Source: Eledone cirrhosa
Lineage: Eukaryota
Assembly (NCBI GenBank): GCA_964016885.1
Contig: OZ024740.1
Location: 391,344,001-391,408,000, forward strand
Reading direction: 5' to 3'
Length of the DNA stretch: 64,000 bases
Every line of letters begins with the position of its first letter. Position 1 is the first letter of the stretch. This document shows, piece by piece, positions 4,763 to 43,300 of the stretch. The notes below the pieces were generated by a model. The model was not told the origin of the DNA, ran no database searches, and was given only the letters and a program-made list of their open reading frames with translations. The position numbers were made by a program, and so were the translations under genes.

Positions 4763-4975
4763 ATAGTAATAATAATAAATTTGAAGACTAAAATCCAAAG
4801 AGGGCTCGATAAGGATAAATATATATCAAATATATAAGAACCGTAGAGCAAATATTTATTAAAAAACAGATTAAAGTTTAAGCAAAGAATCGCTGCTTTC
4901 ACCCTTAACGGGATCTTCTGAAGGGTGAAAGCAACGATTCTTTGCTTAAACTTTAATCTGTTATTTTAATAAATA
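4763..4975 (-). mobile_element. PLE 3'-end fold-back fragment with a truncated hammerhead
   Basis: Inverted arms ~4852-4906 and 4921-4975; minus strand GAAGA-t-ccc-gttaa-ggg-t-GAAA-gca...tgc-TT; same family at 6945-7003 and 22963-23149. Confidence 0.65.
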
Positions 4976-5126
4976 TATATATATACATATATACATGGAA
5001 AGTTATATTTAAATTGTTGGGTTAACAACGAGTAAATATTTATAACTGATATAAAAGCACTCAACAAGTATTTGGAGTATATTTATGATATTAAATAAAT
5101 GGAAACTATATTTATAAAACCATATT

Positions 5127-5192
5127 TATTTCGTTATATATATTTCAGGGATATCATATTAACAATATGTTATGCCTTCTTCAGACAAAATA
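5127..5192 (-). ncRNA. Type I hammerhead ribozyme
   Basis: Reverse complement of the motif at 5338-5403. Confidence 0.85.
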
Positions 5193-5337
5193 CAATATAA
5201 ACAGTCTTATAAATAAATAGATACGACATACCTTTCAATCACCTTGCATTTGGGAATCAACTGCCAAATCAACCTCCCAAATGCAAGGTGATTGAAAGGT
5301 ATGTCGTATCTATTTATTTATAAGACTGTTTATATTG

Positions 5338-5403
5338 TATTTTGTCTGAAGAAGGCATAACATATTGTTAATATGATATCCCTGAAATATATATAACGAA
5401 ATA
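5338..5403 (+). ncRNA. Type I hammerhead ribozyme
   Basis: tattttgt-CTGAAGA-agg..catatt gtt aatatg..cct-GAAA-tatata-TA-acgaaata; 8-bp stem I and palindromic stem III. Confidence 0.85.
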
Positions 5404-6000
5404 AATATGGTTTTATAAATATAGTTTCCATTTATTTAATATCATATATACATATATATATATGTGTGTATGTGTTCGTGTGTGTGTGTGCATGTTTGTG
5501 TATGTGTGTGCATGCATGTGTGTGTGAGAGCACATGTGCGCGTTTGTTTATTCATATGTGTAAGATGTTACTGACGATCTTTGCAGAATAAATTCCATTT
5601 TTTTAAAGTGTAAATCTGCATGCCTATCGCTATAATCATACTCCAAATTGTCTCTGGCAACGGTGAATGTGAACAGAGATTTGCCTACATATTAGAATGT
5701 TTCATGCTTTATGCCGACACCGATTTAAGATCTTCTTAGATGAATGATGCTATAGATCTTTATAGAGTATATAACTTCACAGAATATATAATATATAATT
5801 CTAGAATAAAGCGGATTTATAGAAGAAAAGATCATGTTTACTTGATACTTGAATGAGCATTTGCGAAAAGTGATTTTCATGGGTTTTATTTTGTATATAC
5901 ACACACGCATTCTCTCTCTCTCTCTCTCTCTCTCTCTCTCTCTCTCTCTCTCTCTCTCTCTCTCTCTCTCTCTCTATATATATATATATATATATATATA

Positions 6001-6646
6001 CAGGAGCAAATCATGGAATAGCTTAGATAGGGCTAGACATAAGATAAGGAAAGCCACCTCATGGTACGACAACCAGAGATACCAGAGTGTCATGTTTGTG
6101 GACGCCACCCCTGGAGGGAAATTAGCTAACCAGTGTAGAAAGGCCCTGAGAAAGACCCACTTAAAAATAAAAGTGGTAGAAAAGCCAGGAACCACCATAA
6201 AATCCCTGATCAGCAAAACCTACCCTTTTAAGAAAACCCACTGTACCAATAGGAAATGTATCATATGTAAGGTGAACCCCCGGATAAACTGTAAAACTAG
6301 AAACGTAGTCTATAGCATAAGATGTACAGAGGGTACTTGCAGAAACATGACAACAACATACATAGGTGAGACAGCTCGTAGCATAGGTGAAAGGATAGAC
6401 CAACACTGGGGGGAACTAAAAGGACGAAAAAACGGGTCAGTACTATACGAACATGCTAGACAACAACATGACGGTAACGTAGACAACATAGAAATTAGAA
6501 TAATATCTAAACATAGAAATGACCCAGCAGATAGGCAAATCAGAGAGGCCAGTGAAATAGAAATTAGAAGACCAAAGCTAAACAGAAAGAATGAATGGAA
6601 TAACAACAACACCCAAACAAACAACACTGACCTAAGAGAAGTATAA
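6001..6646 (+). pseudogene. 5'-truncated Penelope-like element ORF: Cys-rich linker plus GIY-YIG endonuclease
   Basis: CIICK..NCKTRNVVYSIRC...TYIGETARSIGERIDQH...LYEH...RQIREASEI..RPKLN; the open frame starts at a (TA)n tract. Confidence 0.9.
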
Positions 6647-7086
6647 ATAAGTAAATAAAATAAGATAAATAAATAAATAAATACATACACAAGCACAATA
6701 ACAACAAGCACATAAACACACACTAGTAAAGATAGAATACATTAACCGACACACAGTCACCCAATCACGAACACACATCAAACAAAACACTATACACACA
6801 CGCAAACGCATGCGCAAAGAAGACAAAATAAAATAAACAAACAAACAAATAAATAAATAAATATATAAACAGACTAAATAAAGATGGCGTAGACATACAA
6901 TGTAACGGGAGGAAATAATAGCACCACTGACGTATATATTTGATATATATTTTCCATATCGAGCCCTCTTTGGATTTTAGTCTTCAATTTTATTATTATT
7001 ACTATATATATATATATATATATATATATATATATATTATAAAATAACAGGAGGCTGGACTGGTGTAAATCCTTGAAAGGTTTATT

Positions 7087-39594: not shown

Positions 39595-39777
39595 TGGTTC
39601 ACCACTGAATAGAACTGGTCATTCCGTATTATAGTCAACCTTGATGTAATATTAGGGAGAGCACTCGACATAATGCAACTCACCCGTCTTCGTTTGTGTT
39701 GTTGGTGGTGCGAGTACGGAATTAATTATGATAAAATAACAGGAGGCTGGACTGGTGTAATTCCTTAAAGGTTTATT

Positions 39778-39835
39778 ATACTATGAACATTTCAATGACC
39801 GGGTTCAGTATGAATCCGGTGACATCATCAGGTAT
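39778..39835 (-). ncRNA. Type I hammerhead ribozyme
   Basis: Reverse copy of the 39981 motif. Confidence 0.8.
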
Positions 39836-39980
39836 TCGAAATTTAACAAAGGAATATAATAGACACAATCCATGGGGCGGCCAACCGGACTGGCAACTGC
39901 TAATTGTTTTGCCGCCTTTCGTCTCTCTGCTTTTTCAGCCCCATGGATTGTGTCTATTATATTCCTTTGTTAAATTTCGA

Positions 39981-40038
39981 ATACCTGATGATGTCACCGG
40001 ATTCATACTGAACCCGGTTATTGAAATGTTCATAGTAT
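39981..40038 (+). ncRNA. Type I hammerhead ribozyme
   Basis: atac-CTGATGA-..accgg attca tac tgaac ccggt..-GAAA-tgttca-TA-gtat-AATAAA. Confidence 0.82.
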
Positions 40039-40204
40039 AATAAACCTTTAAGGAATTACACCAGTCCAGCCTCCTGTTATGTTATAATATATATATATAT
40101 ATCTATATATATATATATATATATATATATATATATATATATATATATATATATATATATATATATATATATATATATATATATATATATATATATATAT
40201 ATAT

Positions 40205-40398
40205 ATAACGAAGGAAATGTGGTAAGGAACCAGGTGGACCATAACGCACCAAAGTACTCAATACTTAGGGTAGTAGAGTGGGTAATAGGAACGAGTAGGA
40301 CCCCGACGGCTGAGCTCAAGCCGTTTCGACGGCTAATTCTGGACTTTTTTTTTTTTAGTCCAGAATTAGCCGTCGAAACGGCTTGAGCTCAGCCGTCG
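40205..40398 (-). mobile_element. Short fold-back PLE end (U3-A8 family)
   Basis: Arms meet at a T-run near 40345-40356; tail at 40205-40285. Confidence 0.85.
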
Positions 40399-43300
40399 GG
40401 GTCCTACTCGTTCCTAGAAATATATATATATATATGTATATATATATATATATATATGTATATATGTATATATATATATGTATATATGTATATATATATA
40501 TGTATATATATGTATATATGTATATATATATATGTATATATATGTATATATGTATATATATATGTATATATATATATATATGTATATATGTATATATATA
40601 TGTATATATATATATATATATATATATGTATATATATATATATATATATATATAATATATATATATATATATATGTATATATATATATATATATGTATAT
40701 ATATATATATATATATATATATATATATATATATATATATAATATATATATATATATGTATATATATACACATATATATTCTTTAAAATGTTTATGTTGT
40801 TCAGAGGATTATGTGCAAAAAATATTGAACTAAATCCAGCTCTATCATAAAGATTTATATCTAGTTTCCTCCCTCTATTTTCTAAATTTAAGAGCCGTTA
40901 ATGCCATCTTTATTTTCACCGTTTCGGGTTCCATAACGTAAAGTATCAGCACTGGGTGCTGATCGCATCAACAAAATATTTGTGATCTTGAGGCAATGTC
41001 AACTATCCTTATTAGACATGAAAGAGACTGGATAGAGCATGTTACTTAATTCCTTCCGGTATATAATTACGTCTCTTTTTCTGCTGGGTTCAACTTGTTT
41101 TTCATGCGTCCGGGATCAGTGGAATTGCTAGCATCAATTACTAGATACGATTATATTGCTACGTTAAAATTTCTTGCATTGTGTTTGTGTTAAATATCCG
41201 TATTAAGATGAGACAAATTTGTATATGATAGTAGATTTAAAATCGTTTAGCAACACCACCAGCAACATCAAAAGTAAAATGTTTGTTCGTTTATTGATTT
41301 CTGGTAAAAGATGATTATACCTTTCTAAGAAACTATGAAAATCTCCACGAAAGTAACAGATTCTCATACCTTCTACGATATCTTACTAATGGTCTTATGA
41401 AATCTCTTTGAAGTAGTTCATTTTAAAATGATATTTCGTTCATAGAAACCTGTTATATAATTCAATTATCTCTTCTCAGAGATTTAGACCAGTAGACTAG
41501 GACTTCTCTTCATTCGTGTTTGTGGCTTTCATGTCACAAATTATCGGTTGAAATGAAATATCAGCGTTTGCCAAAGGCAAAATATATATGATATCTATAT
41601 TTAAGCATTATCTACACCCATTGACAAAAGCACACATAATGAAATGGAGTAAGAATATGGTAAATATGAAGCTTTAATATTCGCAATAAATCAATTTTAC
41701 TTTGAGATATGTAGGTTTCAAAATTACTTGTTTAAAACGCGACATTAGGTTTGGTGATTAATATTATGCTATTAGACAAATTTCTGTCTTGGTGGAATAA
41801 ATTTAATGTAAATGTTTGATTCTCACTTACATAGACAAACACCCAGACACAAACATATTATAGACACTATCAAACGTGTGTGCTAGTTGTTCAGTTAATG
41901 AAACTATCTACCCATTGAACTAGCACATACGTGCATAAATAAAGTAACTAATAGATATTTATAAACTAAACACAATGCACGCGCATAATCACAGTGCAAT
42001 AAACCTAGATCCCAGAATATGTGGCAAAGCTAGACCCACGAATTGCAGGTTTGGTGCAGCCAATGCATTTATATTCAAATTGTGATTTCCATTCTTACAA
42101 GCCTGAAGTTCAATATATACTATCGTCGATGATATATTACCTACATATTGCGAGGTGATATAAAATCGGGGTGGGTGTCAAGATTCCAGCCTGCAACCAT
42201 AAAGCTGTGTGTGTATGCACCATATAAATACAGATATATACTCACATACATATATATGTACACGCCCATGCATGCAATCACATATATATATATATATATA
42301 TATATATATATATATATATATATATATATATATATATATATATATATATATATATATATCATACATATATATACATATATATATATATATATATATATAT
42401 ATATATATATATATATATATCATACATATATATACATATATATATATATATATATATATATATATATATATATATATATATATATATATATATATATAAA
42501 TATAATACATATATATATACATACATATATATATATATATATATACATACATATATATATATATATATATACATATATATATATGTGTGTGTGTCTGATG
42601 GTAGCTAAGATGCTTCCATAGGCGGTATGCCGGTTGAGCACTCTATGCTCTTACAGAGCAGAGTATGGTATAATATGAAACGAAAAATCAGTGATGCATC
42701 TGAAATCAATTTATTGTGTGTTACAATTGTTTCGCAGGCGGACAGCTAAAGACACGATCATTGCATGATTTTCACTGATTTTTTGTTTTATATATATATA
42801 TATTGACTTATGTTTCGTCATTATATATATATATATATATATATATATATATATATATATATATATATATATATATATATATATATATATATATATATAT
42901 ATATATCATACATACGCATTCACATACACTCATATAAGAGTGAGTGTGAGCGTGTGTGAATGTGTGTACGTGTGTGTGTGTTGAGGGGGGGGGCAGTTGG
43001 GGAGTGGGGTGGTGGTGGCTGAGTTTCTTCGATTCGACCTTGACACCCATTTAGATTTTTCCGATTTAGCGGTCAAAGAATTCAAGTGACGCAGGACAGG
43101 CGATTGATTAATTGATGGCCTGTAGATGCTTAAGGAAACAAAGGAGCCATTAACTAATCAGTTTCGGCCAGTATTTCAATATAGTTAGTAAATTATTTCA
43201 TCGAGTCCTTACAGGAAGAATGATAAGATTCCTATCACTGAGTGAATTTATAGACATACCAGTTCAGTATTACCAGGCTGCGTTGAGCACATTCAGATAA

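Follow-up and report, generated by a model that had tools for sequence, protein, structure and literature searches.

What marks the 3' ends of Penelope-like elements (PLEs) whose terminal sequences cannot otherwise be aligned? This question is raised by a 64,000-nt stretch of Eledone cirrhosa DNA (GCA_964016885.1, contig OZ024740.1, positions 391,344,001 to 391,408,000; hereafter the window), an AT-rich (36% GC), microsatellite-rich piece of eukaryotic DNA. Many short element stumps with hammerhead ribozymes and inverted 5' arms lie across it, lodged in (TA)n. The original prediction, made from the sequence, was that a GAG-NN-CTC-like 8-mer lies about 30-60 nt before the 3' end of at least eight such families as a conserved cis-signal. 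We found that the feature is real and richer than first described. The 8-mer forms the 3' strand of a bulged stem-loop that is conserved and, in elements of the Hydra clade, doubled between the hammerhead and the start codon. The structure, its strand, its tandem order in Hydra loci and the genomic ends just 5' of either hairpin were all established from the sequences. We propose, at a probability of about 60% and by analogy with a reconstituted PLE, that each hairpin binds the reverse transcriptase (RT)-endonuclease (EN) protein of the element on RNA, and that complementary DNA (cDNA) would start 1-8 nt 5' of the hairpin.

We evaluated the 8-mer in the window, where the families are numbered F1 to F10 (Table 1). 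All 12 8-mers sit where they had been placed, the minus-strand coordinate being the left end of the word (for 13539 the first base is 13546). They cluster 34-61 nt ahead of (TA)n ends, and in 19 of 20 measured copies 42-69 nt separate the first G from the first microsatellite downstream. Site 39666 (F5), a single copy without a TA run, has a 3' end that is not verifiable. Positional enrichment was found as well: 17 of 53 window matches to GAG[TC][AGC]C[CT][CT] fall 30-80 nt ahead of a TA run of at least five units. This zone comprises 6.8% of non-repeat positions, and the resulting binomial P of 4e-8 is optimistic, because the pattern was derived post hoc from these very sites and the copies are related. 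Outside the motif the families do not align, as had been noticed by eye; in the 36 nt after the word, p<0.05 was reached in just 2 of 45 family pairs. The eight families named at first are correct, and we found two further ones, with words at 73 on the minus strand and 48524 on the plus strand (F9) and at 50522 on the plus strand (F10). The label hammerhead-bearing is fully justified in 7 of 10 families, counting F1 with its U3-A8 variant and F4, whose ribozyme is confined to the inverted arm; F6 and F8 show the 3' half only, and none was seen within 100 nt upstream in F9.

On the hammerhead strand, the hairpin consists of RCUC, a paired stem of free sequence, a U-Y bulge and GAGY, followed by RCU. 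The TT or TC that had been noticed ahead of the word is the bulge. A descriptor with a 4-bp lower stem, a 2-nt 3' bulge and an upper stem of at least 3 bp was devised by eye on the window families. It matched 8 of 10 families, an in-sample figure, where dinucleotide shuffles predict 0.61; with bulges of 0, 1, 3 and 4 nt the matches drop to 1, 1, 0 and 1 families. At the copy level, 15 of 21 window copies match, compared with 0/32 other 8-mer sites and 19/588 other GAGY sites in the window. A stem search without a bulge gave no consistent hairpin. We also examined reads of F1 from a related organism, and found variation at 17342 and 17343 in the loop and at 17358, the last base, where C>T is common; among the 40 of 76 rows listed, the stems are invariant and 17359-17375 is likewise without variation.

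To extend the analysis beyond the window, the protein encoded at 35618-36790 was used as a query, and 5365 relatives were retrieved. An alignment of the endonuclease domains of four relatives then gave the best 80 of 341 metagenome loci and 9 genome-bin loci. One more locus came from a viral collection via a wider alignment, for a total of 90 external loci. A hammerhead was called in 36 of them, 32 with 100 nt or more downstream. Judged by eye against the supplement of Craig 2021, these loci can be assigned to the Hydra clade: the query EN closely resembles the printed Hydra1_Amil EN, and the starts of the external open reading frames (ORFs; YSxKNIP...RMRWKA) match Hydra-1_Ajap. In these loci, the RT and GIY-YIG ORF is physically joined to a motif-bearing end.

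The unchanged descriptor, now out of sample, matched 19 of 32 hammerhead-bearing external loci, which come from other animals, and 7 of 11 families, compared with 0 on the antisense strand and 0.35 in shuffled sequences. Bulges of 0, 1, 3 and 4 nt gave 0, 0, 0 and 4 matches. The 13 misses comprise nine tail-less copies in positive families, L197 with a 2-bp upper stem, L196 with a wrong hammerhead call, and L128 and L194, for which we found no explanation. The external loci have GCUC/GAGC where most window families have ACUC/GAGU. For 23 hairpins that were hand-selected as positive, RNAalifold gave the same bulged fold; 98.1% of 154 cells pair, 31 of them with both sides changed. None of 500 shuffles reached that level, and slid controls paired at most 55.8%. 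A covariance model built from the 23-hairpin alignment found 13 matches in the window at E<0.01; every one is at a tail site, and 7 had served as training rows. Among the external loci it found 64 matches, spread over 44 of 90 loci and with 60 on the ORF strand, and it found 0 in a control set of 80 loci, taken from 120 viral-contig loci of a pattern scan too promiscuous for other use. In 60 distinct hairpins, the first three upper pairs comprise 150 Watson-Crick, 11 G-U, 2 A-C and 17 other pairs, the G-U count being partly biased since most hairpins had been picked by an RNA model. The bulge is UU in 37, UC in 15, UA in 5 and other in 3. The four bases after GAGY are RCTC in 31, ACTG in 8, ACTT in 8 and ACTA in 4, and the eighth base of the 8-mer is free.

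These data bear on the form of the signal. They support a conserved cis-signal linked to the terminus, with a wider reach than could first be seen, but its unit is not a palindromic 8-mer; it is a bulged stem-loop with GAG in its 3' strand. Symmetric half-sites of the form GAG-NN-CTC were not borne out, since the closing base is C, G, U or A among the 60 hairpins and 17358, the variable base in F1 reads, would be the last base of such a palindrome. The 8-mer might instead be a linear or palindromic double-stranded site, such as a dimeric protein site or a core promoter element. In the window families GAG never varies, several of the words are palindromic or nearly so, and the 34-bp repeat of Penelope scores as a basal promoter in silico (PMC2377424). 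However, the eighth base is free, covariation links the word to upstream partners whose spacing differs, no such structure accompanies the 32 other 8-mer matches, and the 34-bp repeat is dispensable for normal transcription (PMC2377424). A double-stranded site is largely refuted because of the covariation, and we consider it very improbable.

Three further candidates were rejected: self-complementary dimerisation via the 8-mer (the last base is free, and F2 and F8 mismatch), a splice donor or branch point (F8 lacks GT, and no consistent intron between two hairpins was seen by eye), and a transcription start at the tail, which is not so in D. virilis (PMC2377424).

In seven external loci that read through into the next ORF, we identified two hairpins 60-68 nt apart, located between the hammerhead and the ATG. 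Hairpin 2 lies 19-31 nt from the ATG in these loci and farther away in L164/L187. Hairpin pairs were also found in L122/L123, L164/L187, L193, L185, L180, L170 and L188. L122 (425-470) and L123 (663-708) have (TA)n inside the element just before hairpin 2, with a hairpin spacing of about 83 nt; this internal (TA)n may be captured target or slippage.

To map the ends, copies were compared with longer relatives. We found that 27 of 41 compared rows end at most 8 nt 5' of the arm of the next hairpin, in a table that holds duplicates and microsatellite artefacts, mainly among its 20 window rows. The 21 external rows represent 19 distinct ends, and 14 of these fall 1-8 nt before an arm. Of the other five, one is a contig end, one was compared with a reference that lacks hairpin 2, two involve 86%-identical relatives, and the last lies at -12. 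Tail-less copies stop 1-8 nt before hairpin 1, and the three tailed copies that allow a close comparison end at -5 (L127), -4 (L179) and about 0 (L158) relative to hairpin 2. In the window, 11 of 18 tail-less ends lie at -1 to -7 relative to the hairpin arm; the remaining ones lie at -11 twice (F5), -18 (F3) and +1, and there are also one at +6 and three with a poor or wrong alignment. The F1 family stops in the reads either at 17316-17325, ahead of the arm at 17331, or at about 17392-17402, TA repeats follow both ends, and the F1 loose ends X15 count 1835, 1881 and 1292 reads. The end in the Hydra clade lies just 5' of the next of two paired hairpins, and not at a measured distance 3' of the motif, as had been thought.

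Published consensus sequences were compared by eye. The motif is present in Hydra-1_Ajap, which has both hairpins and starts 2 nt before hairpin 1, and in Hydra-2_Amil and Hydra-2_Ajap, which end after hairpin 1. Hydra-1_Amil stops about 4 nt ahead of where L159 has the arm, Hydra-1_Crog carries a GCCC/GGGC variant, and no hairpin was seen in the Hydra-1_Obim passage.

How might a hairpin define an end on its 5' side? Frangieh 2024 found that cDNA made by a Poseidon protein begins at two internal positions of the RNA, which match genomic ends and bound the tail (PMC11167929). The protein also requires RNA that lies 3' of the start and extends to +172, past the +111-118 site (PMC11167929). A protein that binds a hairpin 3' of each start would be the simplest way of joining these results with our mapped ends. 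A start before hairpin 1 would yield a tail-less copy, and a start before hairpin 2 would copy hairpin 1 and the spacer, giving the optional tail. The constant 30-60 nt first noticed would then equal the spacing between the two hairpins, and past the ends of the window families there would be another hairpin, one never included in the stumps.

Several observations count against this proposal, besides the bias in the G-U count. Binding and priming by PLE protein at the hairpin is putative in these clades, and the anole template printed in PMC11167929 shows no exact motif by eye. Top-strand single-stranded DNA gives the same G-U polarity, so that RNA and DNA are not separated. The ends at hairpin 2 come from three close comparisons only (L127, L179 and L158), and end positions are blurred by a few bases because the ends are AT-rich with TA microhomology. 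The window holds no read-through copy, hence no hairpin 2. Six of the 21 window copies fail the descriptor (F4, F10, F7a, F8c and the truncated F2b and F8a), F5 fits weakly, and F1b and F5 match through doubtful arms. Hammerhead-like sites at 16368 (plus), 46334 (minus) and 63834 (plus) have no word, hairpin or TA end nearby. In the unit-length Hydra copies L180 and L185, the site ahead of hairpin 1 is both start and end, and in L208 a solo tail sits between AT repeats (3396-3430, minus strand). The flanks of L185 also show a near-duplication of about 12 nt.

These last copies fit a second explanation, in which the hairpin is read as DNA (a top-strand hairpin or cruciform) by the GIY-YIG domain. 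A cut a few bases 5' in the AT-rich stretch would make the ends while a tandem or circular intermediate is resolved, and the RT start would not make them. A nuclease cut is the simpler account of L180, L185 and L208, and the Hydra-1_Ajap consensus likewise starts 2 nt before hairpin 1. Moreover, the EN needs the D. virilis tail to recognise plasmid DNA (Pyatkov 2004, as cited in PMC11167929), and Craig 2021 (PMC8557442) ascribes the tail to EN-mediated resolution. Nevertheless, in the one PLE that has been reconstituted, the genomic ends fall at the RT start sites on the RNA (PMC11167929), and a 4-bp bulged lower stem would be weak for cruciform extrusion. We regard cutting by the endonuclease as possible but unlikely.

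The position of hairpin 2, 19-31 nt before the ATG in seven loci, also suits 5'-leader RNA elements that serve packaging, translational autoregulation or a host factor. Ends would then precede hairpins only via AT-rich linkers that anneal to (TA)n targets, or via structure that exposes the linkers, and the ends are indeed AT-rich and often share TA with the target. But the 40-70 nt interval between hammerhead and hairpin 1 has other TA steps, yet the ends cluster in its last 8 nt, and hairpin 1 is equally conserved far from the ATG. Such a leader role alone is rather improbable.

Recognition of the hairpin by the RT-endonuclease protein on RNA could also be extended. A PLE protein dimer might hold both hairpins of a hammerhead-processed, possibly circular RNA as a template-positioning element and start cDNA before either. 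One full round would give unit-length copies with the same start and end site, as in L180 and L185, and more rounds would give pseudo-long terminal repeats. The motif would be common to more than one (TA)n-targeting clade and to non-autonomous passengers. We offer this extension tentatively and consider it doubtful as a whole.

Table 1. Features of the motif-bearing families and PLE protein remnants in the window
Feature	Position	Strand	Remarks
F1 bulged hairpin with 3' RCUY	17331..17358	+	ACUC / UACU-loop-AGUA / UU / GAGU ACUC
F1 further hairpin copies	31796-31823+, 40252-40279-, 48923-48950-, 44383-44410+		
F1 hammerhead	17215..17312	+	U3-A8 core variant, stems II and III long
F1 optional tail	17326..17402	+	based on read ends
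F2 hairpin	23504..23526	+	hammerhead core at 23439
F2 second copy	44128-44151	+	upper stem UGC/GUA vs UAC/GUA
F2 third copy	48791-48806	-	3' strand only
F3 hairpin	25316..25359	+	6-bp upper stem with two G-U pairs, 18-nt loop; hammerhead core 25210
F3 copy	28396-28439	-	
F4 motif	13539..13562	-	lower stem possible, upper stem not found; descriptor miss; covariance model 16.7 bits
F4 hammerhead	core 13577	+	only in inverted arm
F5 motif	39659..39715	-	long-loop stem, weak fit; hammerhead core 39831-
F6 hairpin	42636..42664	-	6-bp upper stem, UA bulge; copy 29449-29477-
F7 hairpin	5055..5078	-	hammerhead core 5184-; copy 31245-31268- (one upper-stem mismatch)
F8 hairpin	23062..23111	+	compensatory GCUC/GAGC lower stem
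F8 copies	4800-4849-, 6954-6968+		one mismatch in the first; 3' strand only in the second
F9 hairpin	66..94	-	absent from the original prediction; decayed copy 48502-48531+
F10 hairpin	50506..50529	+	absent from the original prediction; G-A mismatch in first upper pair; hammerhead core 50431
Broken RT and GIY-YIG ORF, Hydra type	35293..37550	-	query that led to the external loci
GIY-YIG remnant, other PLE lineage	5999..6646	+	315 nt upstream of truncated F8 copy (F8a)

Inverted 5'-truncated copies beside direct copies form palindromes, for example at 5080-5450, 16830-17321, 28473-28748 and 39731-40085, and strand-switch joints are also seen in F1 reads, where most copies start or invert at 17258-17275, within the ribozyme. 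The U3-A8 hammerhead of F1, with long stems II and III (monomer-like), is present at 17215-17312 and 14860-15071 on the plus strand and at 44300-44362 on the minus strand, and one F1 copy has a CUGAUGUA core with a short stem II. The U3-A8 core variant was already described (PMC4209133). No RNA source is listed as containing F1. In F3, the 5' arm belongs to a perfect 14-nt palindrome (25314-25327), and the tail closes with a second hairpin (25371-25402) that has GAG on its 5' side, so alternative folds are possible. Hammerhead-like sites at 29244 (plus), 1875 (minus) and 34479 (minus) reach a microsatellite 44-60 nt past the ribozyme and resemble tail-less ends; the last of these is the hammerhead core of the 35293-37550 element, whose tail-less end lies at a TA run.

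PLE protein remnants were found in the two regions of Table 1 and at 23631-23936 on the plus strand. A profile search found no ORF beside the window families other than F8a, the copies being stumps without an ORF, and the link between the 5999-6646 GIY-YIG remnant and F8a is uncertain. No loci with the EN of the 5999-6646 lineage were found in the viral collection, and a search with the EN remnant 47800-48039 returned no homologues. The latter region (47760-48040, minus strand) is a frameshifted GIY-YIG remnant with a Neptune-like look, a long C-rich 3' region and a hammerhead-like core (46334, minus), but no hairpin downstream. Pfam recognised 0 of 5 fragments. In Rfam, the 150 of 222 window matches listed are microRNA families on microsatellites or palindromes, below the gathering score, and four external loci gave one irrelevant weak match.

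Other elements in the window include large frameshifted ORFs with Rep and PIF1-like helicase motifs (53430-57584, plus strand), which we take to be Helitron-like, and what are presumably decayed RT fragments of the long interspersed nuclear element (LINE) type, RTE-like and CR1/L2-like (10139-11340, 27154-27835). A dispersed repeat family occurs at 3603-3697, 9174-9320, 21366-21502, 30524-30927, 44883-45076 and 61200-61644, one copy being a near-perfect 394-nt palindrome.

A covarying bulged hairpin that is doubled in Hydra-clade leaders and predicts both PLE ends is apparently unreported. It addresses two open questions, namely the recognition of RNA by PLE RTs and the reason for the optional tail of insertions; the only reconstituted PLE gave two internal start sites and no conserved signal (PMC11167929). 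Since the hairpin is short, covaries and places both ends to within a few bases across animal phyla, exact mutants can be defined. The hairpin also provides a rule for placing PLE boundaries and is a candidate minimal tag for loading other RNAs onto PLE protein. PLE RTs are the closest relatives (sister group) of telomerase, so a template-positioning RNA element in PLEs bears on the origin of telomerase RNA binding.

We compared these results with known systems. EN+ PLEs with an optional 30-40 bp tail and the anole Poseidon element PAc likewise have two alternative 3' ends downstream of the hammerhead (PMC11167929; PMC3846280; PMC8557442), inverted 5' copies and AT-rich targets, and PAc needs RNA 3' of the start. 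The tails described here are about 60-80 nt and non-coding, in contrast to the 30-40 bp of known EN+ PLE tails. A 3'-bulged hairpin can be made out by eye in the printed PAc template, at about +121 to +147, immediately past the +111-118 start. It is an analogue and not a member, as the region lies inside the ORF and lacks the RCUC/UY-GAGY motif. The available portions of Frangieh 2024, Arkhipova 2013 and Craig 2021 name no conserved sequence or structure common to families, whereas here each end has its own hairpin. We found no description of a bulged PLE hairpin in the portions of the literature covered, which take in PMC3846280, PMC2377424, PMC6765202, PMC7229834, PMC13282606 and bioRxiv 10.64898/2026.07.22.740005; figures, supplements and older reports may hold one.

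Another close system is the Hydra clade of Craig 2021. The external loci and the window ORF at 35293-37550 share its protein type, (TA)n targets and hammerheads. The words 'hairpin' and 'stem-loop' are absent from the available main text (PMC8557442). In an exact-word search of the supplement, in which line breaks may hide matches, the motif occurred in tail context only in Hydra entries, other matches lying within ORFs or lacking the U-Y bulge. The A. vaga supplement (10,688 characters) gave no motif matches. Most window families differ from the Hydra clade in using ACUC/GAGU, and no attached ORF supports their assignment to it.

RT-recognition stem-loops include the 3' stem-loops of L2/RTE-type LINEs and of their short interspersed nuclear elements, the R2 3' untranslated region, hepadnaviral epsilon and telomerase RNA stems. 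The PLE hairpin would resemble them as a small bulged RNA stem-loop that binds its own RT and sets the cDNA start. However, the signals of LINEs and R2 are part of the 3' end that is copied, and in epsilon priming takes place from the bulge, whereas the PLE hairpin would act from 3' of an internal start, be excluded from the copy that it defines, and be doubled.

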